Assembly (NCBI GenBank): GCA_040220235.1
Contig: JAVJTO010000055.1
Reading direction: 5' to 3' (one strand)
Origin: Coleofasciculus sp. B1-GNL1-01
GTDB lineage: Bacteria; Cyanobacteriota; Cyanobacteriia; Cyanobacteriales; Coleofasciculaceae
Length of the DNA: 64,000 bases
Shown here: positions 1,809-18,961 of the stretch, in pieces
How positions within the stretch are numbered: the stretch's first letter is position 1
Layout of the letters: every line of letters begins with the position of its first letter
The notes under the pieces: generated by a model
The model's input: the letters and a program-made list of their open reading frames with translations, nothing else
The model's database searches: none
Told to the model about the DNA's origin: nothing
Made by a program: the position numbers and the translations under genes

Positions 1809-2104
1809 GTGTTGACAATCAAGGCTTTAATCTGCTCTTTATGGTAGGAATTCATTAAAAGCTGAGTTACAAGTTCAGGAATAAAAGCTGTATTGTGTAA
1901 TTTGCAAAGTTGAACAAGTCGATTTATCAATACTGCATCTATCTTTTTTGACATTACACGCTCGGATTCAGGGAAATTGGCTATGAAAATATATTCGTCA
2001 TTCTGCTTCTGCGATTGTTGTATTACATAACCAGCTTTGTAAAGCAGGTAGATCGCCGAACGTAGTTCCCCACGAGTCCGATTGTGTCCGAATACTTCAA
2101 TCAA
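1805..2104 (-). pseudogene. Probable detached C-terminal part of the NYN protein (or a small hypothetical protein)
   Basis: TTG start overlaps the NYN stop in another frame; its stop codon is supplied by the mini-element IR. Confidence 0.35.
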
Positions 2105-2783
2105 ATGTTTGTTTAACTTGATATAGTTTGACTATCTCAGGTGCGCTTTGGAGGAATTTCATGAATCCTCCAAACCCCAAGTTATGCTCATCAAATGCCG
2201 AGTCAATCTCAAGCATTTCGTTTTTCAGTGTAGAGAGGCTTACGCCGTCTGGAAATTTACCAAGTACACGTTCCAGCAAATCTAGTGCGTCTTCACGCAG
2301 TTGAGTTGTTTTCAGCGAGGCAGATACACCATTAGTAGTTGATTCTTCATCAATGTAAATAAATCGATTACAAGATTTCTTGACAGCCTCGCTAAGAGCA
2401 GAACGCGGTCCAACACCGACTACAGATTTACCCAACTCTCTTAAACGCCTAAACAAAGGTGAAAAATCTGAATCTCCAGTGGCAAGCACAATCCATTCCA
2501 AATCAGGAATACGAGCCAAGTACTCCATCACATCGACAACAATTTGAATGTCAGCGGAGTTTTTACCTTTTACTGGATGATAAACGTGGACAAACTCAAA
2601 ACCGAGCAAATTCAGCTCTGGCTGACGTACACTGACTGATGCAATACTGAAATCCCCATACGCTCGACGAACCACTACACGCCCTAACTCATTAGCGCGT
2701 TCTAATAACGCTTCTCCTCCATCAGCTTTCAACCAGCCTGATAGGTTTTCGACATCCAAAAAGATTGCGACTTTTTCTGCCAT
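2097..2783 (-). CDS. NYN-domain (PIN-like) ribonuclease with C-terminal OST-HTH/LOTUS domain
   Basis: AIFLDVENL, KNSADIQIVVD, LATGDSDFSPL, GKSVVGVG; C-term LSTLK...FDEHNLGFGGFMKFL. Confidence 0.85.
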   Translation of the reverse strand: MAEKVAIFLDVENLSGWLKADGGEALLERANELGRVVVRRAYGDFSIASVSVRQPELNLLGFEFVHVYHPVKGKNSADIQIVVDVMEYLARIPDLEWIVLATGDSDFSPLFRRLRELGKSVVGVGPRSALSEAVKKSCNRFIYIDEESTTNGVSASLKTTQLREDALDLLERVLGKFPDGVSLSTLKNEMLEIDSAFDEHNLGFGGFMKFLQSAPEIVKLYQVKQTFD

Positions 2784-3032
2784 TTAGGATTCTGCTGAAT
2801 TATTGCTGAGTTAATTTTTCTCACAGGACACCCTAATTCGCTTATTATCCGATACCCAGCGTCAGTCTATCAACAACTTCCTGAAACGGGCAATGCCACG
2901 GTTGCTATATTAAGGTTGTTAATCTTCAAGGAAATGTGAGACTATCCGTCAAGACCATGGCTATAGAATCGGGAAAAATGTACCAGTGCTTGCCTTGCTT
3001 CCCCTGCTCTCTAACCCCACCCCAACACTGAT

Positions 3033-4187
3033 TCAGCAGCCCCTATCTACAACCCAATCTACCTGATGGGCTTCAGTTAGATCTGGAACCTCTACGCGAT
3101 CGCGCATCCGTTGCATCACTGTTTCCGGCACTTTGGCAGCGCGAGAACGATTGCGCCGCAGCAATTCTTCCCAAGCGGCTTCCAGGTAAACAATGCGAAT
3201 TCGTGCATGGTAGGCAGAAAATAGATTAATTAAGGACGAACGCAGTTGGCGAGAGAGATTGGTCGCATTCCAAACAAAGGATTTTTCGGCTCTCATGTAG
3301 TCTTTCGCGATCGCTCTTGCTCGCTCCGCTACAGCAGTTTGGTCATCTTTGGGAGAAATCTTCATCGCTTGTCGCAGTTCATCCAGGGAGATTACTGTCC
3401 AATCGGGAAGGTTCTCCTGAATCCAAGAGTCTTTGCCAGCACCCGGTAATCCTGACATCAGGACAACCTCGAAGCGAGTGTCATCAAAAGCAGCATAGTT
3501 GGGATCGCGATCGTCTTTTTGGAAATAGACAAATCGACTATGATCTGAGGGGAATGGTTTTGGATAAAATAAGCAATTATTCTCTTGACAATATTCTCGA
3601 AAGAACTGAACACGCTCCAGCAGTTCTAGCGGATCGTCACACACGCGACCCCGAATATCCGCTTCTGCCAAAAGTGCCAGCAGGTCGCAGCGAATCACTT
3701 GACTGGCTTTAATTACGGCACGTTGCGGGTTGGGTTTGTCCCAAAACCAGAGAGGAAGACTACCATGCTGCACCAGGGAGACAATCGCCTCCCGTTGATG
3801 AAAGGGTACGTTGAGTGACCAGAGGATTTGCCGCGCCATTTTTGCCCCTTGGCGGACATGACCCTTGGAGGTGATCCTGCCATCGGCTTCAATTTCAGTA
3901 GCCGCAGGTTTTGCCACATCATGGAGTAAGGCAGCCGCAAATAGAAGCGATCGCTCAATAGGTGGTAACTCCTGCCAAGCGGGTAATGCAATTAATGCCT
4001 CACAAACCAAGCGGGTATGGGTGAGAACATCCCCTTCTGCATGGTAACGGGGGTCTTGGGGACAATCCTGAAGGGATTGAAGCCAGTCAAACTCAGCCTG
4101 AAGCGATGCCCAATCTAGCGTCCAGTCTGGAGGCGTGGGACACCAGGGAAATGACCAGCATAAGGATTGAGAAATAGAAGAAGTCAT
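3033..4187 (-). CDS. HD-domain phosphoesterase fused to P-loop polynucleotide kinase (HD-Pnk, end-healing enzyme)
   Basis: HAEGDVLTHT, ALLHDVAK, GH, HG and EAD HD motifs; GLPGAGKD Walker A, SLDELR, WNATNL, LLRRNRSR. Confidence 0.88.
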   Translation of the reverse strand: MTSSISQSLCWSFPWCPTPPDWTLDWASLQAEFDWLQSLQDCPQDPRYHAEGDVLTHTRLVCEALIALPAWQELPPIERSLLFAAALLHDVAKPAATEIEADGRITSKGHVRQGAKMARQILWSLNVPFHQREAIVSLVQHGSLPLWFWDKPNPQRAVIKASQVIRCDLLALLAEADIRGRVCDDPLELLERVQFFREYCQENNCLFYPKPFPSDHSRFVYFQKDDRDPNYAAFDDTRFEVVLMSGLPGAGKDSWIQENLPDWTVISLDELRQAMKISPKDDQTAVAERARAIAKDYMRAEKSFVWNATNLSRQLRSSLINLFSAYHARIRIVYLEAAWEELLRRNRSRAAKVPETVMQRMRDRVEVPDLTEAHQVDWVVDRGC

Positions 4188-4230
4188 ATAACACTACATC
4201 GTAAGGTGAATGTCGCTGACTTAAGCTGGG

Positions 4231-4281
4231 TTTGTAGTAGGCACTTTAGTGCCAGAAGCGCTCGCATCGCTTACTACAAAC
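4231..4281. repeat. REP-doublet-like repeat, also at about 23768-23819
   Basis: tttgtagtaggcac..gtgccagaagcgct..gc.tactac shared between both sites. Confidence 0.55.
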
Positions 4282-4411
4282 TTTAAATCAGTGGCATCTT
4301 TAGCTGGAAACCCAATCACAGCTTACTGTTTAAGTAGAGGGCAACCTCTTTCATGGCAGTGATTAGCTCAAGAATCTCCCGTCATAGTCGTAGACTTGAC
4401 GGCGAGAGTTG

Positions 4412-5194
4412 TCAAAACTGAAACAAATCGACGCCGGGACGTAGGAGATTGGGGACGATAGGGCGGTTGAGCCAATGGCTATCCGATTGCAGGATGGTGG
4501 TTGAAAAGCTAGGACGGACGTATTTGTAACGAGCCGTTACAGCCGCTCCCTCTTCAACTTTGATATATAACCCTTCCATCAGGGGACTGGGGTCAGTTTG
4601 TTTGAGACTTCGCTCCACATCCAATCCCCGTTCCTCACAGGCTTGACGGAAGCGTTCTAAATGTCCTGACTCAATGAAATTCGAGTGACCCAGCAATCCC
4701 ATTAGCTGCTTGTAGGATGTTAATACACCGGAAAACAGGACGGGTACGGAAACCAGGGGTAATCCGGCGAGTAACTCCTGGCGACGTTGGGTACTGAGAA
4801 ACTGCTGCTGTTCAACATCTAGCACATCAAATTCTAAGAAATAATGGGGTAAGGCGTCGTAAAAGACGGTGTGTTTGGCATAGAGCCATTCGCCATAGAG
4901 GATGTAGCGATCGCCCAGAACCTGCCAAAACGTTCCAGTATGACTGTACGCCCATTGTTTGAACAAGTTAAAGTGTTTTTCTCGCTCTCCTCCAGTTAAA
5001 TAATGTCCCCGGCTTTGCAACAGCATTTGCCCATCAGGAGTAAAACTGATGGCAGCATTGGCTCCATCTACTTTTTCTTCGACTACCACATATTGAGAGG
5101 CGATCGCGCTGAAAGGCACGTTATCCAAGTCTTCATCCCCCGGTTGGAGCCGTGAACCTTGGATATGAGGGGTGCGAGGGAATTTGTACATCAA
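4412..5194 (-). CDS. ATP-dependent RNA ligase (Rnl2-like nucleotidyltransferase)
   Basis: KFPRTPH, motif I EEKVDGAN, III LYGEWL, IIIa FLEFDV, IV MEGLYIK, V RYKYVR. Confidence 0.88.
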   Translation of the reverse strand: MMYKFPRTPHIQGSRLQPGDEDLDNVPFSAIASQYVVVEEKVDGANAAISFTPDGQMLLQSRGHYLTGGEREKHFNLFKQWAYSHTGTFWQVLGDRYILYGEWLYAKHTVFYDALPHYFLEFDVLDVEQQQFLSTQRRQELLAGLPLVSVPVLFSGVLTSYKQLMGLLGHSNFIESGHLERFRQACEERGLDVERSLKQTDPSPLMEGLYIKVEEGAAVTARYKYVRPSFSTTILQSDSHWLNRPIVPNLLRPGVDLFQF

Positions 5195-5296: not shown

Positions 5297-5923
5297 TTAC
5301 CTACCAGCCTTCAACACCTGTTCAGCCGTTAGTTTTAAATCTGGGAAGGTTGGAGAGACAATAGTCTGATTGCCCCGAAACTGCTGAATTTCATACTCCC
5401 CATCCACTAACCTACAGACAGAGAGAGTGGGTTGTTTAGGTTTTCCAATATGTCGAGTACCACCTAATCCTGCATAGTCTGCTATCCAATATTCGCAAAT
5501 GCCCAAAACTGCGTAGTCTTCGACCTTACGGGCATAATCATTTTGCCAGTTGCTACTAACTACTTCTGCCACAAATTTAATCGAACTGCCTAGCGTTAGG
5601 ATTGATTGCTCAGACCAAAGCGGTTCTTTGACGAGTTCATCTCGATCAACAACTGCAACGTCAGGTCGAAATGCTGTCATACCAACGTTAGAAGGGCGCA
5701 ATAGTCCCCGCTGAAAGACAAACCAAGGTAAGCCTATTGCGTCAATCTGGACACAGATATTTGCGCTAATGAAGGCTACAATTTCTTCATGTAAACCTGT
5801 TGGTTCCAAATCGAACACCTCTCCGTCGATCAGTTCGTAGCGGTTATCGCTACCATGACGAGCGAGAAACTCGTCAAAGCTAAGTGGCTTCTGTTGAATT
5901 GCCGGATCGACTGCAATGGTCAT
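5297..5923 (-). CDS. Uma2-family (DUF820) putative endonuclease
   Basis: RYELIDG, RPDVAVV, AEVVSSNWQNDYARKVEDYAVLGICEYWIAD. Confidence 0.9.
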   Translation of the reverse strand: MTIAVDPAIQQKPLSFDEFLARHGSDNRYELIDGEVFDLEPTGLHEEIVAFISANICVQIDAIGLPWFVFQRGLLRPSNVGMTAFRPDVAVVDRDELVKEPLWSEQSILTLGSSIKFVAEVVSSNWQNDYARKVEDYAVLGICEYWIADYAGLGGTRHIGKPKQPTLSVCRLVDGEYEIQQFRGNQTIVSPTFPDLKLTAEQVLKAGR

Positions 5924-6079: not shown

Positions 6080-6325
6080 CATAGGACGAATCAAACCTCT
6101 GATTGCTTTGCCCCAGAATATTGACAAACTTTCGACTAGAAACCAACCAAAAATTCAGTCATCTAAGGTTCCGGTTGAGCGGAGACTAACCAACTTGAAC
6201 GATAGACGAAGAGACTTTTTCTAAGAAATAATCGGGAAAGGAGTCGTACAAGACGGCGTGTTTGCTGTATGGTATGGCGGTAGTTAGATAGTTGTTTGCC
6301 CTGAGATCGCAGTTCTATGAGTTGA

Positions 6326-6407: not shown

Positions 6408-6761
6408 ATGCAATTAGAAGATTATTTTGATTTCCTCAGTCCTGATGACATTCGGATAAAAGGCACAAGAATAGGGATTGAAACTGTTTTATATGATTTC
6501 ATCCATCGGTGTCGCACCCCAGAGGAAATTGCCCAGAGTTATCGAACCCTAGATTTAGAACAAGTCTACGCTACGATTCTATACTATCTGCACAACAAAG
6601 AAGCAGTCAGTACCTACCTTGCTAATTGGATTGAGCATGGTCGCAGGATGCGAGAGGAACAAAAATACAATCCTCCACCTGTTTCTGAAAAACTGCGGAA
6701 ACTGAGAGCAGAAAGAGAAGCAATGAGGAAAGCAAGTGGCACTGAAGTATCTTTTAGATGA
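6408..6761 (+). CDS. DUF433-family antitoxin
   Basis: IRIKGTRIGIETVL...TPEEIAQSYRTLDLEQVYATILYY. Confidence 0.9.
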   Translation: MQLEDYFDFLSPDDIRIKGTRIGIETVLYDFIHRCRTPEEIAQSYRTLDLEQVYATILYYLHNKEAVSTYLANWIEHGRRMREEQKYNPPPVSEKLRKLRAEREAMRKASGTEVSFR

Positions 6762-7199
6762 GAACGTCGATCGAGTTTATCAAACTCAACTTTTGCGGCA
6801 ATATCCTGAATTAATTGTTCTTATGGTAGGAGAGCCTGGTAAGCTGTCATGCATTTAAATTGGGTATTAGTAGCGAGCAAGATGCTCGCACTACAAGGAT
6901 TTCATGATTATTGATATTAAGGTTTAAATGCCGAACAGCTTAATCCTCCCAAAAGCACGCCAGATCCTGAAATTTTATGCTGGTGTGAAGCCAATGGGTT
7001 TGTTTTGGTGACTAATAATCGTGCTTCTATGCCTGTACATTTAGCCGATCATCTTGCTCAAAATCGCCACATACCTGGTATTTTTATTCTCAATCCCGAT
7101 CTAGGCATTGGTGGAAATCTCGAAGAATTAATTTTAGCTGCTCTTGCTTCCGAAGACCATGAGTATCAGGATCGGATTATTTATTTACCTCTGCCATAG
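6736..7199 (+). pseudogene. DUF5615 PIN-like toxin disrupted by a 99-bp MITE
   Basis: GTG start gives LKYLLDENVDRVYQTQLL...VGEPG; removing 6842-6940 plus one TA restores the frame NPPKSTPDPEILCWCEANGFVLVTNNRASMPVHL. Confidence 0.85.
6842..6940. mobile_element. 99-bp MITE (agctgt...acagct ends, TA target duplication)
   Basis: TA on both sides; related copies at 39232-39330 and about 21635-21877. Confidence 0.85.
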
Positions 7200-7303
7200 A
7201 GGATGTAGCGATCGCCCAGCACCTGCCGAAACGTTCCAGTATGACTGTACGCCCATTGTTTGAACAAGTTAAAGTCTTTTTCTCGCTCTCCTCCAGTTAA
7301 ATA
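7193..7303 (-). repeat. 111-bp internal fragment of the RNA ligase gene (direct copy of 4892-5002)
   Basis: 108/111 identity by manual alignment; contains a HIP1 site. Confidence 0.9.
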
Positions 7304-7518
7304 TGTCCGTTGCGAATTCGTTCCTTAGCTGCTTCCCATGAACTACCTGAGCCAGGATTCTGCAAATAGGAAGCCTTTCTCTTTGCCAGCTCTTCTTTTT
7401 GCCAATCAAGCACAGGAATTTGCTCTGGAATTTGGGCAATGCTGTCCCATAAATCTTCCAGCAGTTGTAGTTTTTCCGAGAGGGTTAACTCAAACATTTG
7501 AGTGAACTCTGTGTTCAT
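7297..7518 (-). CDS. Addiction-module antitoxin-like protein (TIGR02574 type), no toxin partner
   Basis: LTLSEKLQLLEDLWDSI...WQKEELAKRK..Y...PGSGSSWEAAKERI; ATG at 7518. Confidence 0.8.
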   Translation of the reverse strand: MNTEFTQMFELTLSEKLQLLEDLWDSIAQIPEQIPVLDWQKEELAKRKASYLQNPGSGSSWEAAKERIRNGHI

Positions 7519-7717
7519 GCTGACCTCACCATCGCAATCGGTGTCTTGCTTCAAGTTTATCACCGATAACGATATTGCTTCCTCCTCAACGGCGGATGTG
7601 CTTGAGGCGGCAAAATGTGCAGGTCAAGAACTGGCTCGATGGTTAGAGCAATCTAGAAAAGTTGGGTTGAGTCTGTCAAGTCCTTGCTTGTGAATCAGTC
7701 GGTAACGTGAAATCCAA

Positions 7718-7817
7718 CATGGCTCGATTAAGCGATCGCACTCTTGTTTGAGGTGGAGAAGCAGTGATGAGTGTCAGGTTTCATCCCGCAACCCAACCGA
7801 CAAGATCGGGCGATCGC
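7718..7817. repeat. Inter-cassette repeat R1 (two HIP1 sites plus REP-like core)
   Basis: 94/100 identical to 11216-11315. Confidence 0.9.
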
Positions 7818-7843: not shown

Positions 7844-8482
7844 TCATGAATTGTCCCTACACCCAGATGTTATTGCCTCTAATTCCAGTTCGCATTGCCT
7901 AAACACATAATTTAGTGCTGCAAAAAGTTGTTCGAGATTATATATCGTATAAGCTGCAAAATTCTTGGTAAAACGATTGTTTTGGAGTTTGCCAAACTGC
8001 CAAAGCTGACCATTCGATACGATTCCGTATATCGTCTGCTGTTCAGATTGGTCATTCATCTTCTGAATCGCCACCATTTCAGCTAAACATTGACCCCATC
8101 CTTTAGTAAAATCATCCCGTTTAGCTTCAACAGCGACAAAAAACGGCTGCTCAAATATTTCTTTTCCTAGAGGCGATCGCTTGGCTATGATATAGTCAGG
8201 TACACCGGATAATTTTTCATTATAAATTAGTGACTTGTGGCTCCACAAAGTAAACTTATCTCGATAAAGCCGATAAAGCTCTTTGAGGACTGGAAAAATA
8301 ATCGTTTCACAAATCGCATATTCTGACTCCTCAAAGGTTAATTCTTTCAGGCAAAATTCTAAATCTTCTCTAAATGATTCTCGAATATCAATTTTGCTTT
8401 CGATAATATAGTTTGTTTCTGAGGAAGTAATCTCATACTCTTTGAGGACTTCCCCAAGATTTTTGTAGGATTCAAAAGACAC
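7844..8482 (-). CDS. Cyanobacterial PD-(D/E)XK restriction-endonuclease-like protein
   Basis: LSGVPDYII, VAVEAKRDDFTKGWGQCLAEM, IYGIVSNGQLWQFGKL. Confidence 0.75.
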   Translation of the reverse strand: MSFESYKNLGEVLKEYEITSSETNYIIESKIDIRESFREDLEFCLKELTFEESEYAICETIIFPVLKELYRLYRDKFTLWSHKSLIYNEKLSGVPDYIIAKRSPLGKEIFEQPFFVAVEAKRDDFTKGWGQCLAEMVAIQKMNDQSEQQTIYGIVSNGQLWQFGKLQNNRFTKNFAAYTIYNLEQLFAALNYVFRQCELELEAITSGCRDNS

Positions 8483-8546: not shown

Positions 8547-8618
8547 TGTCGGGTTTCATCCTTCAACCCAACCGAAAAAATCGGGCGATCGCATATTGAG
8601 TGCATGGGCATTGTTCAA
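8547..8618. repeat. Inter-cassette repeat R2
   Basis: 66/72 identical to 11270-11341; includes HIP1 and the XisI stop codon. Confidence 0.9.
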
Positions 8619-8950
8619 GCAGCACCATAGTCTGTGTACTGCCGTTTGTAAGGAGGCTGTAAACCCAACACAATATCTTCTCTCTTGACACCCATTCCAA
8701 CCAAATCCTCAGCAGGATTCTGGTCTGTCAGATTCTGCTGAAGCCAAATTTTTCCGTCTTTGATATCAAAATGGACAATACAACGATAAACTCGGTTAAG
8801 CTGTTGCCATCCCACATTCATCCATTGGTAATGATCCCGCTCCGTGTCCAAGATAAGTTGCACTTCGACCTCATCATCCGAAACATCATCCTTGGCGTAC
8901 TGGCTCAGTAATGTCTGAATGTACTCCCGATATTGAGCTACCTTGTCCAT
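8615..8950 (-). CDS. xisI: XisI-family protein
   Basis: DTERDHYQWMNVGW...HFDIKDGKIWLQQNLTD...DIVLG..PPYKRQYTDY. Confidence 0.9.
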   Translation of the reverse strand: MDKVAQYREYIQTLLSQYAKDDVSDDEVEVQLILDTERDHYQWMNVGWQQLNRVYRCIVHFDIKDGKIWLQQNLTDQNPAEDLVGMGVKREDIVLGLQPPYKRQYTDYGAA

Positions 8951-9075
8951 TGCACTATCACCTCATTAACTGGATCATACACAATTATCAAGACCTGATA
9001 CCGTTGCAGGTGCAGTTTGAGTAAATTCGTATTGAAAAACGTTTGGTAAACATCAACTGGAACTGCCAAGTATAG
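8938..9075 (-). pseudogene. xisH: XisH 3' remnant
   Basis: manual translation LYLAVPVDVYQTFF...IIVYDPVNEVIVQWTR* overlapping the xisI start; N-terminal two-thirds missing. Confidence 0.8.
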
Positions 9076-9105
9076 GCTGATTCATAACCATTTAAAGAGT
9101 TGTTT

Positions 9106-9735
9106 TCAAGATTGAAGCCAACTTCGCAAGATATTAATTACCACTGGAGTAAAAGGTTCCATCTGACTCTGTTGGGGTTGTGATAGCTCATCGATTAACA
9201 TCTCTAAAAGTTCTTCATCCTCTAAGCCTTCATCGGGGTCTATACCATTTGTCCATAATAAAGCATTAGACAATTGCTTGCGTTTTTCGATCAAGGCACG
9301 GTTATGTTTTTCGTGATCTCCCAAGTTTAAGACTCGGATCGTATCGGTTGCCCGCTCGCTTAACCCTTCTACCCGACCACTAATTTTAAAGCGAAGTTCT
9401 GTTTCACATTCTATCATCAGAGGAGTTAGGGGTAGGGGTTGAGATTTATGAGCATCACCGCATTGATTAGAGGTATTACAACTGGCGACAATATTTGAAA
9501 AGTCAACTGTGCGTCTAGGATTCAATTTTTGAGCTTCTATATGCTCATTGTGGCAAGCATCAATATCTTGGATGCGCTGGCAACAATAGGCACAAAGGTA
9601 GAATTGTTCTGATAGAGCATATTGCCGAATAGTTCGGCGAATCTCTTCGGTTAACTGGTTGTAGCGTCCGTGAGGGTTTGCTCGTTTCCAAACTGTTAAG
9701 CTGGAGGGTTCAGTCCCTTTACTAATGGTTCGCAT
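9106..9735 (-). CDS. HNH endonuclease, PtuB/TIGR02646-like
   Basis: EQFYLCAYCC, HNEHIEAQ, FSNIVASC...CGDAHK, TIRVLNL; overlaps the ATPase stop by 14 bp. Confidence 0.85.
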   Translation of the reverse strand: MRTISKGTEPSSLTVWKRANPHGRYNQLTEEIRRTIRQYALSEQFYLCAYCCQRIQDIDACHNEHIEAQKLNPRRTVDFSNIVASCNTSNQCGDAHKSQPLPLTPLMIECETELRFKISGRVEGLSERATDTIRVLNLGDHEKHNRALIEKRKQLSNALLWTNGIDPDEGLEDEELLEMLIDELSQPQQSQMEPFTPVVINILRSWLQS

Positions 9736-11092
9736 GACGCAATTCTTGTTTACGGATCAGCAATTTTGCTTTGACCAATTCCAGATGATTTGCGGGTAGT
9801 TCCTCAGTTAATTTGGCGAGTCGTTGTTGAGCCTCGGTTAGCTTTGAATCTTGTATGGCATCCAGCAGATCGTTCAGTTCAGCATCAATTTTCTGATTAC
9901 GGATGCTGGTATCCATAACATCTAATAAGACCGTATTAGCATCTTGCCCATACTGAGAGGGCAATTGTCGCAATTCACCATTGGTTAAGGTGTAAACCAA
10001 AACATTTTTACAGTCACTGATCACCAGAGGTGAATGGGTAGTCAGCACAAACTGACAATTTGGGAACGTTGCGATTAGGCGATCGCACAGGCTGCGTTGC
10101 CAAGAGGGATGCAGGTGCAAATCGACTTCATCAATCAAGACGATACCATCTCCTGCTAGAGGATTCTCCAAAGCAGGGTTCAGCATGGCTAAACGGCGAG
10201 CAATATCACCAACCAGAGCCATGAGAGATTTTTCGCCTTGTGAAAGTTGGGCGACATTCAGGGTTTCACCGTTTTTATCAATCGCCATGTAGAGACGGGG
10301 TTTACGACGGACTCTCAGGTTGTCCATCTGGGGCATAAATCGGCGAATGGCGGTGCGAACTGCGGTTAATTGCCGATCTTTGGCTGAGGCATTGAGTTCG
10401 TTTAACCGTTGCCATGCGTCTGGATTGGTTTCCAATAGTGGTTTCAGTTGGTTGAGAACATCTTCAGGCATTGCTGATTCATTTTCGGTATCTTCCCGTT
10501 CCCGAAACCACTCAAAAAAGCGGCGAAAGTCAACCCCCTGACTTAAAGAGTTATCGTAACCATCGAGTTGCAAGAAGGTATGCTTTGTCCTAATTTTTAG
10601 GGGAATATCAAGTACAACGCGCTCGACAGGGTAAAACGCAATGATGGGCAGGCTAGTTTTGTGATCACGGGTAAGGGCATCACGGTAACGATTGGCTAAG
10701 CGAGTGCAGTCGTTGAGATGGCTAGTGTACCGGGCTTTACGTCCTGTTCTATTTTTGGCTAAAGTCCACTTGAAGTGATGCTGGATCTCGTTTTGATTCG
10801 GATTGTCTGATGTTCCAGAAGCATCACAAATTTCTATTTCAATACTGGCGGCGTTGGCGGTGTTAAGTATGGCATCTTCCGGGATAGGGTTACCACTACC
10901 CTTTTCTGTACGTAAACGAGCAGTAAACCAACTCAGGGAAATAGCTAAGGCTTTCAATACAGAGGTTTTACCCGCGCCGTTATTACCCACAAAGACAGTG
11001 ATGTTGCTGGGATTTTGCTCGGTGGGTGCTAAAGGAATTTCCAGGTTTTCAAATAGCCCAATGTTATTTAAGATAACCCGTTGGATTTCCAT
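9722..11092 (-). CDS. ABC/AAA ATPase, PtuA-like (Septu / retron-Ec78 effector type)
   Basis: GNNGAGKT, FFEWFRERED, QLSQGEKSLMALVGDIARRL, LIDEVDLHLHPSWQ, LTTHSP. Confidence 0.85.
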   Translation of the reverse strand: MEIQRVILNNIGLFENLEIPLAPTEQNPSNITVFVGNNGAGKTSVLKALAISLSWFTARLRTEKGSGNPIPEDAILNTANAASIEIEICDASGTSDNPNQNEIQHHFKWTLAKNRTGRKARYTSHLNDCTRLANRYRDALTRDHKTSLPIIAFYPVERVVLDIPLKIRTKHTFLQLDGYDNSLSQGVDFRRFFEWFREREDTENESAMPEDVLNQLKPLLETNPDAWQRLNELNASAKDRQLTAVRTAIRRFMPQMDNLRVRRKPRLYMAIDKNGETLNVAQLSQGEKSLMALVGDIARRLAMLNPALENPLAGDGIVLIDEVDLHLHPSWQRSLCDRLIATFPNCQFVLTTHSPLVISDCKNVLVYTLTNGELRQLPSQYGQDANTVLLDVMDTSIRNQKIDAELNDLLDAIQDSKLTEAQQRLAKLTEELPANHLELVKAKLLIRKQELRHANH

Positions 11093-11215
11093 AGCGGTAA
11101 CGTTCAAACCTCTGAGGTTTTCGACATTGACAACAGTACCTCAAACGGTACTTGAAGGCACTTACCCCTATTATGGTCTCAAAACAGTTGCACGTAGCCA
11201 GTTTCATCCCAGTCT

Positions 11216-11341: not shown

Positions 11342-11550
11342 CGGCGACGTGCCTTAAACCTGAGTGGGTCATCAGTACACTGCTCTTTTTGAAGCGCTCG
11401 TTTGGTTTTTATGCAAAAATACCGCTAGTTGTTGCAAAACTTTACAGGCTGGTGAGTGTGTAGCACGGACGTGAAACTCACTCGTGGCAAACAGTAAAAA
11501 GTTTGCCTTATCTAAGGGCGCTGTCAACGTAAGTAGTGTGTACAGGAGCA

Positions 11551-12408
11551 ATGGAATCAAACGTTTTAACCGCAATTTTTCTTCCCTTAGCCCTATTTAT
11601 CATTATGCTGGGTATGGGATTAGGGTTGACAGTTGATGATTTCAAGCGGGTACTGGTTGAACCATTAGCCGCAATTCTTGGACTCATTGCTCAGCTTATC
11701 ATGCTGCCCGCCGTAGGCTTTTTACTGGCTAGCCTTTTCCCGCTTTCTCCAGAATTGGCGGTTGGCGTAATGGTTTTAGCGGCTTGCCCTGGCGGACCCA
11801 CATCCAACCTGGTAACCTACTTAGTACAGGGTAACGTTGCCCTATCGATTACGCTGACGGCAATTAGCAGCGTGATTACAGTATTTACGATTCCTTTGGT
11901 CGTTAACCTAGCGATGCAGCGTTTTCTGGGGGAGGCTACTATCCTAGAGCTACCCTTCTTGACGACGGTCATTCAAATTGCTGTCATTACCCTGATTCCA
12001 GTGATATTAGGCATGGTAATTCACCACTACGCTCCTCGTTTTGCGGCTTATGTGGAAAAGTGGGTCAAGTGGCTCTCTCTATTCTTTTTAGCCCTAATTA
12101 TCGTGGGTTTGTTGGCAGCAGAACGCGCTAATGTTGCCAGCTTCTTCTTGAAAGTGGGCTGGGTTACCCTCGCTTTAAACATGAGTACAATGCTACTGGG
12201 GTTTGCACTCGCCACCTTGGCTAAGCTAGATATCCGCAGCGCCAAAGCCATTACGGTAGAAGTCGGTATTCAAAACGGTACTTTAGCCATTACCATTGCC
12301 AGCGCACCAACTCTTTTGAACACGCCAAGCATGGCTATTCCAGCCGCCATCTATAGCTTAATCATGTTCGCAACAAGTGCCGTCTTTGCTGGGTTAGCGC
12401 GACGTTGA
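11551..12408 (+). CDS. Bile acid:sodium symporter (BASS) family transporter
   Basis: IMLGMGLGL, ACPGGPTSN, GNVALSITLT, EVGIQNGTLA; hydrophobic helices. Confidence 0.9.
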   Translation: MESNVLTAIFLPLALFIIMLGMGLGLTVDDFKRVLVEPLAAILGLIAQLIMLPAVGFLLASLFPLSPELAVGVMVLAACPGGPTSNLVTYLVQGNVALSITLTAISSVITVFTIPLVVNLAMQRFLGEATILELPFLTTVIQIAVITLIPVILGMVIHHYAPRFAAYVEKWVKWLSLFFLALIIVGLLAAERANVASFFLKVGWVTLALNMSTMLLGFALATLAKLDIRSAKAITVEVGIQNGTLAITIASAPTLLNTPSMAIPAAIYSLIMFATSAVFAGLARR

Positions 12409-12410
12409 CA

Positions 12411-12468
12411 AGCAAGAGGAGGCGATTGAAATCGCTGCTACACAAACAAAGTCCGCCTGCGCGGACTG
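12411..12468. repeat. Dispersed REP-doublet-like repeat (also 42804-42862; related at about 19878 and 47203)
   Basis: agcaagaggaggcgattgaaatcgctgctacacaaac..gtccgcctgcgcggactg. Confidence 0.75.
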
Positions 12469-12560
12469 GGTAATAACGGGGGTAGCGTTCCCCGGATTTG
12501 GTATAAAGCGGCAACAAAGGAAGCCTACAACCGTACCCATAGGATCGGTGTAGGAGGACG

Positions 12561-13040
12561 TCACAGCTTCTTGAAGTATCTGGCAACTGGTAATAGCTCG
12601 AAACCTACCTTTTCATAGGTGTGACGGGCTGGGGCATGACCAGGATCGCCTCCAGTTTCAACCATAGCAATAGACATCCCAGCATCTTTCATCCAAGCCA
12701 GAGCAAATTCTATCAAAGCACTACCAATGCCGTGACCTTGAAAGTCTGGATCGACAGCAACCATGTAGATTTCACCCATGCTGTCCTCTGAGTGTAGTTT
12801 CACAGCTACAAAGCCCACAGTAGAATCGGCATCGATAGCAACCCATACATTCGTATCTTCCGCAGCACAGACATCCTCGACAGCTTTTTGCTGACTCACA
12901 CGCCAATGATTGGGATAGAATGCCTGGTACACATCAGCGTTCATCACGTTCTGAATCGAATCAAAGACCGGAGTCCATGCCCGAAGCGAAAGACGAATAA
13001 TAGCATCCAGGTGGCGAGGGTCGTATGGTTCAATTTGCAT
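12561..13040 (-). CDS. GNAT N-acetyltransferase
   Basis: MVAVDPDFQGHGIGSALI acetyl-CoA motif; ARHTYEKVGF. Confidence 0.9.
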   Translation of the reverse strand: MQIEPYDPRHLDAIIRLSLRAWTPVFDSIQNVMNADVYQAFYPNHWRVSQQKAVEDVCAAEDTNVWVAIDADSTVGFVAVKLHSEDSMGEIYMVAVDPDFQGHGIGSALIEFALAWMKDAGMSIAMVETGGDPGHAPARHTYEKVGFELLPVARYFKKL

Positions 13041-13289: not shown

Positions 13290-13982
13290 GTGTCTATCTG
13301 GATTATTCGTCATGCTGAAAGTTGCTCTAATGCTGGGTCGCCAACCATCGGACCGCATGATAATGGCTTGAGTGAATTGGGCTACCGACAATCAAAATGT
13401 ATTCCAACCACCGTGAAACAGTCTCCAGACTTAATTGTGACTTCACCTTATCTGAGAACGCAACTCACGGCTCAGCCATTGATTGAACAATTTCCACATA
13501 CACCCATTGAGGTTTGGCAAATTCAGGAATTTACCTATCTAAGCCTACCGCTCGACCAACCAACCACACCTTTGATTCGCAAACCTCTGAGCAAAGCTTA
13601 TTGGGATCGCTGCGACCCTGAATATGTGGATGGAGCCAACGCTGAATCGTTGGTTCAACTGATGGAACGAGTCCGAAATGCTCTGAACCAGTTGCAACAA
13701 CAATCCGGTTTTGTGGTTGTCTTTTCACATGGATTCTTTATCAAAGCGATGCTGTGGCAGATTTTGGCTAACCCAACGGTAATTGATGCCGTTGCCATGC
13801 GTCGGCTTTTAGGATTTTCCCGAGGATTTCGAGTACCGAATGCATCAATTTTGCAGATGGAATTTGACTCAAGTGGGATACCTCACTGGAGTTCCTTCAT
13901 CACCAATCATCTGCCACCGGAGCTAGAATCGGCAACACCCGATGCAACAGTGGCGAGTGATGCAGGCGATCAACCTTCATGA
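13290..13982 (+). CDS. Histidine phosphatase family protein
   Basis: IIRHAES, LSELGYRQ, TSPYLRTQLT, QEF, FSHG. Confidence 0.85.
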   Translation: MSIWIIRHAESCSNAGSPTIGPHDNGLSELGYRQSKCIPTTVKQSPDLIVTSPYLRTQLTAQPLIEQFPHTPIEVWQIQEFTYLSLPLDQPTTPLIRKPLSKAYWDRCDPEYVDGANAESLVQLMERVRNALNQLQQQSGFVVVFSHGFFIKAMLWQILANPTVIDAVAMRRLLGFSRGFRVPNASILQMEFDSSGIPHWSSFITNHLPPELESATPDATVASDAGDQPS

Positions 13983-14055: not shown

Positions 14056-14305
14056 TTGTAGTATATTGGTAGTACGACTCAACCCCTCATTGTTTCGTGA
14101 GCGATCGCTCAGACTTTGCCTCAGGCAAATCGTAGCACCGTTGCTTCCAGAGGGACAAGGCCGCATACATTACACCCCTTGGCGAAGGTATGTCAGAGCA
14201 AAGAGTCCAGAAGAAAAAAATGGCGACGATTCGTGAAGTCTACGATCGCATTCTCTGGGATGCACGTCTAGACCGCAGCGCCTTTGCGATCGGCTATATC
14301 GAGCG
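14056..14305 (+). pseudogene. 250-bp diverged duplicate of the upstream region and first ~39 codons of the MJ1316-PAP gene (copy of 15762-16011)
   Basis: about 233/250 identity; truncated ORF from ATG 14190, MSEQRVQKKKMATIREVYDRILWDARLDRSAFAIGYIER. Confidence 0.9.
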
Positions 14306-14310
14306 TATGT

Positions 14311-15690
14311 CTATTGAGCAAACTTATCCGTGGGTGTAATAACTATAGTTACTGATGACATTACTTCATAAGGTCTAGTGATTTCCTGGTAATTATCTTC
14401 ATGAAGTCTTATGTGTGTAATATCTGGAAATAATGCTGGTTCTATAGGATATAAAGCGTTTGGATTATGAAACATTACTATACTCTCTGACCATGTTTCT
14501 CGATATGATGGATGATCGATATCAATTGAGAAAGGAATTGGTTCAAATGCTTCTGGATCTGGATCGAAGAGCTTGCCAACTCTAATCATTTTGATAGCTT
14601 GACTACCAAGACCAGCAAGCTTTCCCATTCTATTGAACTTTGTAATAGTTGCACTATTGGTAAATAAAACTGCGCTGATGTTCTCGGTCTCTGGAAGTTT
14701 GAAAAAACCTGATGGGATTCTTTTTCCCTCATACTCATGAAAATCAATATCTTCTTTAACTATGCTGCTATTGCCGTTACTATCCTTTGTCAGTCTGATG
14801 CGTTTAGCATAGAGGTAGTCCGACAAAGCAGTTCTTGACCAAACCATTGATCCGGTCTGGTGATAATCATGTATCGCAATTACCAATGGCTTACCACGGA
14901 CATGTTCCTTTTCCCAATATTTCTTATTTAGCTTTGAGTAAAGAGGACTTCCAAACTTGATAGGCATATAATGCCTAAGCCGTTCGTCTAAATCTTCTTG
15001 ACTCGTTGGTTCTGGCAAGTCTTGTTTGTGTCTACTAGGATTGACGGTAACAGCCTCAATACAGATTATCTGATTAAATCGCTCTACAACATAATCAGGA
15101 GCGTTGAAAGAACGATCTATTTTAAAGCCCGACTCATGAAGATAAACATATAGAAAAATTTCCCAGAGTCTTGAATCAAAACCACTTGTTTGAAAGTCCC
15201 GAATAAAATTACCATCGGGATCAGTGAATGTATAAATAATCTCTTCAATTAGATTTCGAGCCGCCTCAAATCTAGGTTCTTCAACCAAGTAGCGGAAATA
15301 AGGATGTAGTTTTTCTGGTGCAACGATTTGTTTATAGATGTATTGAGGCGGACTATCCTCATCTCCTTGAGGATATTGTTCGTGCTCTTCCTGACTAAAC
15401 TCAGTTAACTTTTTTTCAAGCTCCTTGCGTGCATCTTCAATAGAATTAAAGCTAACTCCAGTGTAGATGCAACGGTAATTTTTGCGTGTGTCTCGACCAA
15501 AAATTACAAAATTCCAATCGTTATCAAACTTATCGATGAATATATTTGCAATAAGAATTTTTCGTTCGTCAGTGTACCACTCGACTTCCTTATTAATAGT
15601 AAAAGCCTCTGTTTCCGGCTTAATTCCTCTGACAAGCGGATCGCGAACATAGCACAGAGCATTAAAGTACTCTTGAGAGATAGGGTGCAT
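14311..15690 (-). CDS. AT-rich hypothetical protein with PD-(D/E)XK-like motif (family often auto-annotated 'glycosaminoglycan attachment protein')
   Basis: FQTSGFDSRLWEIFL, APDYVV...CIEAVTVN, KPLVIAIHD; 459-aa ORF. Confidence 0.6.
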   Translation of the reverse strand: MHPISQEYFNALCYVRDPLVRGIKPETEAFTINKEVEWYTDERKILIANIFIDKFDNDWNFVIFGRDTRKNYRCIYTGVSFNSIEDARKELEKKLTEFSQEEHEQYPQGDEDSPPQYIYKQIVAPEKLHPYFRYLVEEPRFEAARNLIEEIIYTFTDPDGNFIRDFQTSGFDSRLWEIFLYVYLHESGFKIDRSFNAPDYVVERFNQIICIEAVTVNPSRHKQDLPEPTSQEDLDERLRHYMPIKFGSPLYSKLNKKYWEKEHVRGKPLVIAIHDYHQTGSMVWSRTALSDYLYAKRIRLTKDSNGNSSIVKEDIDFHEYEGKRIPSGFFKLPETENISAVLFTNSATITKFNRMGKLAGLGSQAIKMIRVGKLFDPDPEAFEPIPFSIDIDHPSYRETWSESIVMFHNPNALYPIEPALFPDITHIRLHEDNYQEITRPYEVMSSVTIVITPTDKFAQ

Positions 15691-15895
15691 TGCAGAAACT
15701 CTAGAACCTTAAATTGCAATAAATTGGCTGACACTTAGCTTTTCGTGGCAACCAAATACTATTGTAGTATATTAGTAACACACCTGAACCCCTCATTGTT
15801 TCGTTAGCGATCGCTCAGACTTTGCCTCAGGCAAATCGTAGCACCGTTGCTTCCAGAGGGACAAGGCAGCATACATCACACCCCTTGGCGTAGCC

Positions 15896-18800
15896 ATGTC
15901 AGAGCAAAAAGTCCAGAAGAAAAAAATGGCGACGATTCGCGAGATCTACGATCGCATTCTCTGGGATGCACGTCTAGACCGCAGCGCCTTTGCCATCGGC
16001 TATATCGAGCGCAGGTCTGAAGAAGGTATCCGCGAAAAACCATTTACCTCTTGGTCAACCGATGGAGACATCCCATTGCATCGCATCCGCTATATACGCT
16101 GCGGGGAGGAAATCGTTTGGGATCGCGACCAGCACTTGGATCTGTTCTCGGCAGGACAACTGCCTGATGCTGCCTTTCTAGCGCATCCCCAAGAGGAGAC
16201 ACATTGGGCTACAGTCACACCTCCTGCACAAAGCCAACACCTACTATTCAAGCCACGATCGGCCTACCAGTACAGTTCACAAGGTTGGCAACCAACTGAC
16301 CAACCGTCAACAGAGACAACAATAGGTACGCTGACCATTGCCAGTTTTAACGTGCTGTGCGACAGCTACGAGCAGGAACGCATCCAGACAGCACAACGCC
16401 TGCCTGTGATTGTAGAACATCTGCGCCGATGCGATGCGGATATTATCGCGCTACAAGAAGCGACGCCACCCCTGCTAGACGTGTTGTTAAAACAGGATTG
16501 GGTACACTCTTACACCATTTCTGAATCACCCGAAGGACAAACTCTAAAGCCCTATGGTGTTTTGCTTCTATCGCGACTGCCGTTTACGCTGGTCGAGCAT
16601 CAGTATTCGGCGCACAAGCGGGTGCTGGTGGGAACCTGGCAGATTAACGGGCGATCGCTACATTTAGCCGTCGTGCATCTGACCAGCAATCGCGCCCGCA
16701 ATGCTCTTGAAGTCCGGGCAAATCAACGTTCTGTATTACTGGAGTATCTCAAGACGCTGCCAGGAGAGAGTTTCATTGTTGGAGATTTCAACAGCCGAGG
16801 GGATGAGCCAGAGGAGGAGTTGAGCCAAAGCGGTTTTGTCGATGTTTGGACGCTGCTGCATCCTGATGATCCAGGCTACACCTTTGACCCAGAACGTAAC
16901 CCGCTAGCCACATTGATGAGTTTGAACGGTGAGGCGGCGCGGTTTGATCGCATCTTACAGCGCAGTGAAGATGGGTGCTGGATGCCTCGTTCGATGGAGT
17001 TGTTTGCCTGCGAACCTGTAGCGGATACCCAAGGAACCCTTTACCCCTCCGATCATTTCGGCATCCGTGCCGTTTTGGATTACTCAACGCCCACAATAGC
17101 AGCGTTGCAGACAGTGCCGCCAGTCTATCGGAGTGCAGTTGTGGTGATTCCCTCGGCTGATGTGTTACCTGCGATTCAAGCAATTCGCCACCGATATGAT
17201 CGCAGGTTCCACCGTTGGATGCCGCACATCAATTTGCTGTATGGCTTTGTGCCAGAGGAGTATTTTGAAGAAGCAGCGCAAGCGATCGCACTTGCACTTG
17301 CCCAATGGCAACCCTTTGAGATAACGCTCACCAGCTTTGAGGCATTCAAGCACCGCTCTAGCTGTACGGCATGGTTGCGCCCCGTTGCCCAACCCCCAGA
17401 TGCACTCCATCAGTTGCAAGCCGTTCTCCAGCAGTTGTTCCTGCAGTGCGACGAGCAAAGCCAGAAGTCAGCAGCAGGGTTTACACCGCATCTGAGCGTC
17501 GGTCAGTTTCCCACTGCACAGGAAGCCAAAACCCAGCTTCCTTCCTGGCATCCAGTGAGTTTTCTCGTGAACTCCGTAGCCCTGATTAGCCGTCGCGGTG
17601 ATGAGCCGTTTGAGGTGCGATACAGGGTGCATTTAGGGCAAGAGAGCAAGGATTGTAGAGACGCGCCATGGCGCGTCTGGGAAGCTGGGGAAGAGACAAC
17701 TAACCTAATGCAGCGACTGAACCACCTCGAACCCGAGCTGAGTCAGGAGCAACGCCAGCATCGCGAAACCATTTTGGCATTAGTCGAGCAAGCTTGTGCC
17801 GAGTGTTTGGGTTTCCCGGTATCCCTGCATCGAGTAGGTTCGGCACGTTTGGGCGTGCAGAGTCCGCAAAGCGATTTAGATGTTCTTTGCCTGATTCCCG
17901 CGTATCTGTCTGGGGAGGCGTTTTTGGAAAGCGTGGGACAACGCTTGGAGGGATTATGCGATCGCGCCCAAGTCGTCTCATCTGCCAAGATACCTCTGTT
18001 AAGGATGGGATTTGAAGGCGTGTCTGTTGATCTCCTGTATGCCCGCTATCCTTCTGATCTAGGCACAGTTGAGCCGTTCACAGAGGCAGCACGACCCTTT
18101 TTTGATCCAGTGAGTTGGAAAGCACTGGTGGGTTGTTTGGAAGCTGATATCCTTACAGCTATAGTACGCCAGTCTGTACCGCTAGCGTCTTTCCGGCAGC
18201 TTTTGAGGGCAGTGCGGGCGTGGGCGAAGGCACGCCAGATTCACGGCAATGCTTGGGGGTTTCTGGGTAGCTTTTCCTGGGCATTGCTGGCGGCTTGGAG
18301 TTGCACTCGTTTTCCCGAAGCGGGTGCGGATACAGGGCTTGAGGCATTACTTGCTCATTTTTTCCAGGTACTCAACCAACAGGATTGGAGTCAGCCTGTA
18401 GCCTTGACCCCAGCAGGTAAACAATACCAGAAATTGCCCTATGACTGGCTACCTGTCATCACCTCCATTGAACCCTGTCAAAACAGCGCTCGTAATGTCA
18501 CGCGATCAACTGCCCAGATTTTGCGCCGCGAATTCGAGCGAGGGGCCGCTATTTCAGAGCAAGTGTTGGCTGGCAAAATAGGTTGGGACGCTCTTTTCGA
18601 GATAGCTGATTTACCGACGCAATCCGATTCGTTCTTGGTGCTGACGGCAACCTGTGACAACAACGATCGCTTGTCAGCTTGCTGCGGGTGGCTGGAAGGT
18701 CATGCGATCGGATTGGTCATCGCTCTGGAACAGCAACTCGATCTGTATGTTAGACCTTGGACTGGGATTCTGAAAGGGCAAAACAGGATTTGCGCGGTGT

Positions 18801-18961
18801 TAGGATTAAACTCTTCCCAAGACTTTGATGATGTTGCAATTGAGCAGGTTGGTCGAGATTTTGTTCTTCAGTTCAATGCTGATTCTAATGGCAGTATGTT
18901 GGAGTGTGTGGCGTGCGATCGCGTTACACTTGTCCAATATGTAAACCTGCCTGCCAAATAA
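15896..18961 (+). CDS. Multidomain RNA-repair protein: MJ1316 + EEP phosphodiesterase + 2H phosphoesterase + eukaryote-type poly(A) polymerase
   Basis: IYDRILWD...IPLHRIRY...VWDR (MJ1316); SFNVL, ALQE, VGDFN, RFDRI, PSDHFG (EEP); PHINL/PHLSV (2H); GSARLG...SDLDVLC, VDLLYA, VRAWAKARQIHGNAWGFLGSFSW, PVIT..PCQNSARNV (PAP). Confidence 0.85.
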   Translation: MSEQKVQKKKMATIREIYDRILWDARLDRSAFAIGYIERRSEEGIREKPFTSWSTDGDIPLHRIRYIRCGEEIVWDRDQHLDLFSAGQLPDAAFLAHPQEETHWATVTPPAQSQHLLFKPRSAYQYSSQGWQPTDQPSTETTIGTLTIASFNVLCDSYEQERIQTAQRLPVIVEHLRRCDADIIALQEATPPLLDVLLKQDWVHSYTISESPEGQTLKPYGVLLLSRLPFTLVEHQYSAHKRVLVGTWQINGRSLHLAVVHLTSNRARNALEVRANQRSVLLEYLKTLPGESFIVGDFNSRGDEPEEELSQSGFVDVWTLLHPDDPGYTFDPERNPLATLMSLNGEAARFDRILQRSEDGCWMPRSMELFACEPVADTQGTLYPSDHFGIRAVLDYSTPTIAALQTVPPVYRSAVVVIPSADVLPAIQAIRHRYDRRFHRWMPHINLLYGFVPEEYFEEAAQAIALALAQWQPFEITLTSFEAFKHRSSCTAWLRPVAQPPDALHQLQAVLQQLFLQCDEQSQKSAAGFTPHLSVGQFPTAQEAKTQLPSWHPVSFLVNSVALISRRGDEPFEVRYRVHLGQESKDCRDAPWRVWEAGEETTNLMQRLNHLEPELSQEQRQHRETILALVEQACAECLGFPVSLHRVGSARLGVQSPQSDLDVLCLIPAYLSGEAFLESVGQRLEGLCDRAQVVSSAKIPLLRMGFEGVSVDLLYARYPSDLGTVEPFTEAARPFFDPVSWKALVGCLEADILTAIVRQSVPLASFRQLLRAVRAWAKARQIHGNAWGFLGSFSWALLAAWSCTRFPEAGADTGLEALLAHFFQVLNQQDWSQPVALTPAGKQYQKLPYDWLPVITSIEPCQNSARNVTRSTAQILRREFERGAAISEQVLAGKIGWDALFEIADLPTQSDSFLVLTATCDNNDRLSACCGWLEGHAIGLVIALEQQLDLYVRPWTGILKGQNRICAVLGLNSSQDFDDVAIEQVGRDFVLQFNADSNGSMLECVACDRVTLVQYVNLPAK

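Follow-up and report, generated by a model that had tools for sequence, protein, structure and literature searches.

A probable three-gene end-repair module split by a gene-capture hotspot in Coleofasciculus

We analysed a stretch of 64,000 nucleotides from the cyanobacterium Coleofasciculus sp. B1-GNL1-01 (G000:C55:61053-125052, where G000 is the source genome, 8.66 Mb in size; the whole stretch is hereafter the window). Within it lies a 17-kb block, bordered on one side by an acetolactate-synthase-like gene and on the other by a TerB/NrtA-like pair (Pfam), which carries a DdrP-like ligase, the end-healing enzyme HD-Pnk, and a fusion of MJ1316, EEP, 2H and poly(A) polymerase domains (below, the fusion). 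On balance we judge it rather probable that these three genes form an end-repair module with RNA as its likely substrate, and that the gap between its two arms is a gene-capture hotspot whose cargo does not need the repair genes. An earlier note, made from the letters of the window, had proposed an RNA-repair island doubling as a landing pad for toxin and defence cassettes, and every gene that it named is present at the position it gave (open reading frame list, Pfam and PADLOC). Throughout, G-codes denote genomes compared, L-codes individual loci and X-codes sequencing runs. The core genes are:

4412..5194, minus strand: core gene 1, ATP-dependent ligase, DdrP (DR_B0100)-like (PF09414 RNA_ligase)
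3033..4187, minus strand: core gene 2, HD-Pnk, HD phosphoesterase plus P-loop polynucleotide kinase (Pfam HD and AAA_33)
15896..18961, plus strand: core gene 3, fusion of MJ1316, EEP (TDP2-like), 2H and canonical-type poly(A) polymerase, 1021 aa (Pfam MJ1316, EEP, 2H, PAP_NTPase and PAP_central)

The three core genes and their linkage

The ligase consists of a nucleotidyltransferase domain only (259-260 aa), in which the motifs EEKVDG, QSRG, GEW, EGLY and RYK are invariant across 26/26 orthologues. It has both the KxDG adenylation motif and homology to DR_B0100 (25% identity, E 8e-11; profile probability 97.6%), the match to the DR_B0094 Rnl being far weaker (E 0.001), and a sequence search returned no related solved structure. 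HD-Pnk combines an N-terminal HD domain and a C-terminal P-loop kinase in one chain with intact motifs (the HD, the second D and the P-loop GxxGK are kept in 30-31 of 31 orthologues), and is 28% identical to DR_B0098 over its full length (E 2e-22). The ligase gene stands directly upstream of it on the same strand, with a gap of 224 bp here, and in relatives the two genes abut or overlap. By family and motifs this pair is a DdrP-type cassette, with predicted healing and sealing activity. Plasmid records from several phyla (51 and 56) show how widely the pair is distributed; HD-Pnk is described as a 2',3'-phosphoesterase and 5'-kinase, and the natural substrate of the pair as not known, in parts of PMC6097658.

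All four domains of the fusion are recognisable, and its catalytic residues are strongly conserved among 61 homologues: the EEP residues N152, E188, D297, N299, D351 and H387 and the 2H residues H444 and H532 are each kept in 58-61/61, and the polymerase residues G648 in 61/61, D660 in 60/61, D662 in 61/61 and D712 in 58/61. The polymerase part comprises a GS..DxD..D catalytic domain and a central helical domain (PAP_central), with no Pfam match to RlaP (PF10127) in the fusion. Structure and sequence comparison of the predicted model (pLDDT 89.9, pTM 0.54; low-confidence linkers at residues 97-115 and 586-601) indicates resemblance to canonical poly(A) polymerases and to TDP2. We class the fusion by fold and do not file it as a poly(A) polymerase by activity, ATP-specific processive tailing being at most a prediction. 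The residues N202, T317 and V247 of bovine poly(A) polymerase, which we take to be adenine-selecting (a literature check did not confirm these roles), correspond to V745, A865 and F793 here, and N is found in 1/61, T in 18/61 and V in 6/61 homologues. If those roles hold, the lack of conservation leans towards relaxed nucleotide choice. The "tailing" arm of the earlier note is unproven: the enzyme may add one or two nucleotides instead of a tail. Position 61 of MJ1316 (about 16076) is Leu here and Trp in 59/61 homologues, a change that may weaken end recognition by this domain. A short palindromic repeat that occurs genome-wide (up to 37 matches) lies in frame in the linker between 2H and polymerase (window 17632-17703). 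Upstream of the gene, a structured leader was not supported (z -0.49, no Rfam family). A promoter scan gave 26 sites against 26.1 by chance, so that two -10-like boxes, with ends at 14067 and 15773, were dropped as promoter evidence.

Linkage of the fusion to the other two genes was surveyed in 401 genomes of the order. The fusion search matched 28 of these, from which G058 and G473 were removed (2H domain match only), leaving 26, including G003, in which only the first 105 codons are present. HD-Pnk was found in 71/401 genomes: it occurs in 25 of the 26 fusion genomes versus 46 of the 375 without the fusion, counts in which kin are not independent. Among the 25 genomes with both genes, HD-Pnk lies directly upstream of the fusion on the same strand in 11 (three of family f57 and eight of f31), and the ligase precedes HD-Pnk in nine of these (G579 is decayed, and G653 runs out at the contig edge). 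The two genes are convergent within 5 kb in two further genomes and divergent on one contig in three (G000, G006 and G018); G002 and G003 have the same locus by its flanks with the genes in pieces, and the arrangement in G007 could not be settled. Copies 89-95% identical are carried by Coleofasciculus records. A scan of genome contigs returned close kin only, a phylum-wide MJ1316 search gave 2/401, and no viral copy was found with a single search pattern.

Metagenomes extend this picture. Within the best 80 of 559 metagenome loci, 39 have near-full fusions, 33 of them with at least 750 bases upstream, and a ligase or kinase neighbours the fusion in 15 of these 33 versus none of 23 control loci (2H-only or partial matches). 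In a Nostocaceae metagenome-assembled genome (L066) HD-Pnk stands 22 bp upstream of the fusion, and L144:3879-10467 presents a row of DdrP-type ligase, T4-Rnl2-like ligase, fusion, small gene and HD-Pnk. Moreover, records of Nonomuraea and Embleya, and four metagenome loci as well, have a single ligase-kinase gene directly upstream of the fusion. Linked copies in a quick tree of 48 fusions come from the actinobacterial clade, from L182 and L144 and from several clades of cyanobacteria, and unlinked copies are interspersed. Given this co-occurrence, the same-strand adjacency and the ligase-kinase gene upstream in actinobacteria, both arms are most likely parts of a single end-repair pathway. 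Its usual form is one operon, in the order ligase, HD-Pnk, fusion, and in this genus and near kin it is split and divergent. The claim that the arms form one conserved gene set is supported; the refuting outcome named in the earlier note, arms unlinked in relatives, was not what the neighbourhood comparison gave.

Several neighbourhoods deserve separate mention. In the actinobacterial ligase-kinases (L133:6013-7998, L134, L172, L174, L175 and L178) a middle part of 230 residues has no Pfam match and no HD motif by eye; that it is a decayed HD domain was unsupported (hhalign E 0.09, no better than controls). If these proteins do lack a phosphatase, the downstream EEP and 2H domains would have to heal the 3' end. 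The repair row of L144 is followed by a MoxR-vWA ternary conflict system, and a ligase-less fusion is directly preceded by an ADP-ribosylglycohydrolase gene at L145:5036-5956, the Deinococcus operon also having an ADP-ribose hydrolase.

A number of observations weigh against a tight three-gene unit. Both genes are present and unlinked in six of the 25 genomes, HD-Pnk occurs in 46 genomes that lack the fusion, and no ligase or kinase is near 18 of the 33 usable metagenome fusions; beside these unlinked copies, Pfam on part of the flanking genes found no other ligase. A plasmid copy in Calothrix stands alone, likewise without ligase or kinase nearby. In G006, about 400 bp of HD-Pnk (L041:14434-15148) are missing, and with them the greater part of the HD domain, with ligase and fusion whole. 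Additionally, the source genome holds two RtcB and two RlaP genes elsewhere (C157:81482-82573, C128:15091-16371, C30:26804-29544), and the Runella ligase self-adenylates yet sealed none of the RNA or DNA substrates tried, as reported in part of PMC6097658. In view of the unlinked genomes, the HD-Pnk-only genomes and the standalone copies, the fusion is best regarded as an accessory, optional member that is not required. An HD-domain loss resembling that of G006 is seen in the HD-Pnk of G029, and the RlaP pair in G000 is followed by a small P-loop gene.

The earlier note had counted five genes in the toolkit, adding a NYN RNase and a histidine phosphatase, and here the ligase, HD-Pnk and fusion stand and the other two do not. 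The NYN gene is a 228-aa remainder of a 399-aa gene that is whole in G003, truncated by a deletion of about 220 bp, its tail persisting as an open reading frame at 1805-2104; it occurs in three others of 60 genomes, and in G003 it has an interior position. Histidine phosphatase orthologues occur in seven others of 60 genomes, only that of G004 at this locus; of the other six genomes, two have repair genes on other contigs and four have no close HD-Pnk or fusion. Neither gene was found beside intact operons. Since NYN and phosphatase do not travel with the repair genes, the toolkit comprises three genes.

Gene capture between the arms

From ligase start to fusion start the gap measures 10.7 kb. 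Features of the block other than the core genes are:

2097..2783, minus strand: NYN-LOTUS gene, truncated, cargo (Pfam NYN and LOTUS)
5297..5923, minus strand: Uma2 nuclease-fold gene (Pfam; 15 relatives in G000)
6219..6264, minus strand: dead ligase fragment, copy of 4832-4877, 89%
6408..7199, plus strand: DUF433 and DUF5615 (PIN-like) pair, in which a 104-bp element interrupts DUF5615 (Pfam)
6839-6942: the 104-bp element, set between TAA/TTA triplets and having short inverted ends; the genome contains 151 near-full copies
7193..7308, minus strand: dead ligase fragment, copy of 4892-5008, 97%
7297..7563, minus strand: orphan addiction-module antitoxin (TIGR02574), no toxin gene adjoining
7718..7817: locus-specific repeat of about 100 bp ending in HIP1 (highly iterated palindrome 1); copies at 8547-8618 and 11216-11341
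7844..8482, minus strand: PD-(D/E)XK gene (PADLOC PD_DExK)
8615..9081, minus strand: XisI and XisH remnant of 47 codons (Pfam)
9106..11107, minus strand: Septu-type PtuA ATPase and PtuB HNH nuclease (PADLOC)
11536..13040: non-defence cargo, SBF (bile-acid-symporter) family transporter (plus strand) and GNAT (minus strand) (Pfam)
13290..13982, plus strand: histidine phosphatase, passenger (Pfam His_Phos_1)
14056..14318, plus strand: dead copy of the fusion promoter region and first ~43 codons
14311..15690, minus strand: PD-T7-1 anti-phage gene, 459 aa (PADLOC over its whole length, E 8e-175)

Toxin-antitoxin, nuclease and defence genes occupy about 6.2 kb of the gap, and a transporter and a GNAT gene also lie inside. 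The individual cargo genes listed in the note are present, some of them as wrecks: the NYN gene is truncated, DUF5615 split, XisH a remnant and the antitoxin without a toxin gene. The two PD-(D/E)XK-like genes it recognised are assigned by PADLOC to PD_DExK (7844-8482) and PD-T7-1. Intact defence cargo amounts to PD-T7-1 and the Septu-type PtuAB, in which PtuA is followed by PtuB (PADLOC E 6e-167 and 2e-97); their scores fall below the NCBIfam cut-offs for retron Ec78 effectors, and no reverse transcriptase (as in retron type I-A) was found beside them among the open reading frames scanned.

The interior of the block is a gene-capture hotspot in this lineage, free of integrase: among 22 open reading frames scanned with Pfam there is no integrase or transposase, positions 1-24000 contain no tRNA or other Rfam family, and there are no identical terminal repeats, the repeats being internal and 89-97% alike. 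Cargo differs between relatives. The slot filled by PD-T7-1 here holds a CBASS (cyclic-oligonucleotide-based anti-phage signalling system) phospholipase and a split cyclase in G003, and the cargo of G002 comprises sugar-modifying genes and phytochelatin synthase, that of G018 NACHT and GFA genes. Dead 5' copies of both ligase and fusion, which are expected from recombination anchored in these genes, lie among the cassettes. An unbroken dead 5' half of the ligase (window 4832-5203) is present in G029, followed by Uma2, and here it is cut by the DUF433/DUF5615 pair into 6219-6264 and 7193-7308; the second dead piece measures 198 bp in G001, 182 bp in G006 and 117 bp in G000, against 372 bp for the unbroken form in G029. 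This nesting, from unbroken in G029 to cut here, allows capture events to be ordered in time. The dead 5' copy of the fusion is of the allele type of G018/G024, the working copy of the type of G003/G006. The landing-pad part of the note is therefore borne out by the differing cargo, the alignment breakpoints and the dead anchor copies.

Homology-facilitated illegitimate recombination is a mechanism by which defence hotspots between conserved genes are filled. Under such a mechanism, one side of the incoming DNA would recombine within a conserved anchor gene (ligase or fusion), the other would be joined through a few shared bases, sometimes HIP1, and the anchor's 5' part would be left behind as a dead copy.

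Of the alignment breakpoints, 72 fall inside the block and 20 in the remaining window, a contrast that is inflated because relatives cover the outside less fully. Only five of the 72 lie within three bases of HIP1 (1.1 expected), and none of the 20 outside. Both points temper the case for the hotspot, and as a general insertion mechanism HIP1 is rejected, with 67 of 72 breakpoints away from it. Copies of the repeat of about 100 bp that ends in HIP1 border cassettes, and the PD-(D/E)XK cassette starts at HIP1 7810 here and after HIP1 18915, behind the fusion, in G002, G004 and G006. Contigs of X9 and X13 (two mat runs) contain the HIP1-HIP1 joint, with eight letters shared, and HIP1 is linked to site-specific and illegitimate recombination in part of PMC4390886.

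Other features of the window may be noted. Families of short palindromic repeats run along cassette borders (2912-3049, 4184-4297, 5963-6090 and 12406-12565), and a copy of the 104-bp element near 21640 (21633-21880) is enlarged by 21-bp tandem repeats. A long array of 9-bp units (21349-21620) lies 3' of the NrtA-like gene, its length varying in relatives. The region 49855-58064 (38-43% GC) looks variable and contains a double-helix-turn-helix gene, a ParA-like ATPase, a NACHT-pentapeptide protein and an AAA ATPase with a small partner. Genome-wide, the cargo families other than Uma2 have 26 (PD-DExK), 18 (XisI), 14 (XisH) and 8-10 (DUF433) relatives; the proposal that this locus is the richest cargo cluster in the genome was dropped as circular, the queries having been taken from the locus itself. 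In the contig-only RNA runs, which have no bearing on transcription, X9 and X13 do not cover the bins of PD-T7-1 and NYN, and X1 has a depth of 3-5 over PD-T7-1 against about 100.

Proposed pathway and rival explanations

What we observe are the genes, their motifs, their fold and their linkage, and on these we base a scheme in which every reaction, and the substrate, is predicted. RNA cut to 2',3'-cyclic-phosphate and 5'-OH ends would be the substrate. MJ1316 would bind the cyclic end and 2H would open the cyclic phosphate, EEP or HD would then take off the 3' phosphate, Pnk would phosphorylate the 5' end, the polymerase would extend the healed 3'-OH by one or a few nucleotides, and the ligase would seal. 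The extension could serve gap filling, as for RlaP, or could provide a short tail marking fragments for decay, two possibilities that are about equally open. Parts of PMC7824862 state that ligases of the ATP-grasp type depend on 2H enzymes, phosphatases and kinases, and RlaP is described in part of PMC12776372 as restoring lost bases by adding one or two nucleoside monophosphates to damaged RNA before ligation. A more specific proposal, to which we give a rather small chance, is that the fusion reads, opens, dephosphorylates and extends ends in one chain and would be the missing partner of the DdrP-family ligase, which would seal only ends extended by the fusion or RlaP, the genes also anchoring the cassette array. 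Such a requirement would account for the failure of the Runella ligase to seal anything on its own.

A different view of the same genes is that they form a general damage-repair kit for use following desiccation, UV or oxidative stress, its main targets being DNA breaks (or DNA and RNA together), with EEP clearing 5' or 3' blocks and the polymerase filling short gaps. We consider this a serious rival but fairly unlikely, and some of the evidence for it weighs directly against RNA as the substrate. The ligase and HD-Pnk are homologous to DR_B0100 and DR_B0098, the Deinococcus operon is radiation-induced, DR_B0098 is required for radiation resistance, and DR_B0100 has DNA ligase activity only together with DR_B0098 and PprA (as given in part of PMC6300522). 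Moreover, the best solved relative of the EEP domain is TDP2, a DNA enzyme, and metagenomes from marine sediment and hypersaline lakes are among those that carry the locus. Conversely, MJ1316 is described in part of PMC6514570 as recognising RNA 2'-3' cyclic ends, 2H enzymes are RNA enzymes (part of PMC7824862), and a T4-Rnl2-like RNA ligase and RlaP occur as neighbours. Canonical poly(A) polymerases, too, are RNA enzymes. Improbable, in our estimation, is that the fusion is itself a cargo gene that landed upstream of the ligase, so that the arms no longer cooperate and core genes here merely flank a variable region of the ordinary kind. The arms are divergent and 10.7 kb apart, and in G008 TerB and a solute symporter occupy the expected place of the fusion. 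Two further points count against the module itself as well: the whole triad is shown in one of nine genus genomes (G007 being probable), G002-G004 having the fusion in pieces and none being found in G001, G005 or G008, and the fusion of G515, the nearest one outside the family, is unlinked. However, the same divergent ligase/fusion pair recurs in G018, of another genus, in a different chromosomal setting, a random landing beside the usual operon partners is unlikely, and the catalytic residues are kept.

That the repair genes are an antidote, letting the cell carry or recover from ribotoxins between the arms, as the earlier note suggested, we regard as very improbable. In its favour, Septu cuts tRNA-Tyr within the variable loop in E. 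coli (part of PMC13096335); PtuAB here is Septu by gene content, and tRNA-Tyr cleavage by it is a presumption by analogy with the E. coli system. Close PtuA orthologues are found in 9/9 genus genomes, seven of them shown at this locus. Additionally, G029 reproduces the layout of the window with RlaP replacing the fusion: at L234:6120-17395 (G029:C71) two RlaP genes point away from a ligase and broken HD-Pnk, with PtuAB, a RelE-like/helix-turn-helix pair, DUF433/DUF5615 and a Schlafen AlbA_2 gene between them. This is a single case in the family, the only one there with RlaP in the ligase neighbourhood, and RlaP as a regular replacement arm was dropped on account of it. Against the antidote, G001 (99% complete) keeps PtuAB, XisI, PD-DExK and an unbroken DUF433/DUF5615 pair with no more of the repair genes than a 198-bp ligase scrap, HD-Pnk and the fusion not being found. 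Among 21 genomes with close PtuA orthologues outside the family, none has the fusion and three have HD-Pnk, in no case within 100 kb. The other RNase candidates of the window (NYN, DUF5615) are broken, intact operons of two other families have no such cargo, and mending the cut of an abortive-infection system would presumably cancel the defence. G001, the outside PtuA genomes and the intact operons thus all leave the antidote claim unsupported: the cargo is kept for its own sake, without need for the repair genes.

Relation to known systems and significance

The ligase and HD-Pnk pair and MJ1316 repair fusions are already known. In Deinococcus radiodurans, the operon of ddrP/ligB (DR_B0100), DR_B0099 and HD-Pnk (DR_B0098) has the same ligase family and a full-length HD-Pnk homologue with the ligase upstream, as does the ligase, HD-Pnk and Tpt1 cluster of Runella slithyformis (part of PMC6097658). 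Our locus differs in that its third gene is a four-domain polymerase fusion, where those clusters have a poly(ADP-ribose) glycohydrolase or Tpt1/methyltransferase-HIT, and in that cargo divides the set. Fusions of MJ1316 to RNA-repair domains were described by Burroughs and Aravind 2016 (NAR 44:8525), as cited in part of PMC6514570, and the name that Pfam gives the domain agrees with this. A literature search that did not cover two HD-Pnk papers or the Burroughs and Aravind 2016 survey and supplement, which may list the fusion and operon, gave no paper describing the three genes as an operon or what the fusion does.

RlaP (PF10127) offers a functional parallel without being a family member: like the fusion, it is a Pol-beta-superfamily transferase encoded beside an RNA ligase, and in G515 it takes the place of the fusion after HD-Pnk, in a row of ligase, HD-Pnk and RlaP, with the fusion elsewhere in the genome. 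The fusion differs in its canonical poly(A)-polymerase fold and in having its own end-binding and end-healing domains. Its likeness to eukaryotic poly(A) polymerases (human PAP gamma 4lt6, bovine 1f5a, yeast 2q66) reaches E 9e-38 by sequence and, for the predicted fold, a TM-score of 0.77 over the target across 455 columns, with the three catalytic aspartates kept; unlike them, it is bacterial and fused to MJ1316, EEP and 2H. With defence hotspots filled as described above, the gap shares variable cargo, fixed flanks, absence of integrase and partial anchor duplications, and it differs in that its anchors are accessory repair genes that decay and in that what each event left behind can be put in temporal order.

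A third gene that recurs, with all four of its end-processing domains intact, turns a known pair into a defined three-protein set. The fusion, a bacterial protein, belongs to the eukaryotic nuclear poly(A)-polymerase family; no experimental study of it appeared in the literature searched, and, if the missing-partner proposal is true, the nuclear poly(A)-polymerase fold would serve in bacteria as a gap-filling repair enzyme. Finally, the locus records, step by step, how an integrase-free cyanobacterial locus swaps its defence genes, PD-T7-1 and CBASS occupying the same slot in different relatives.

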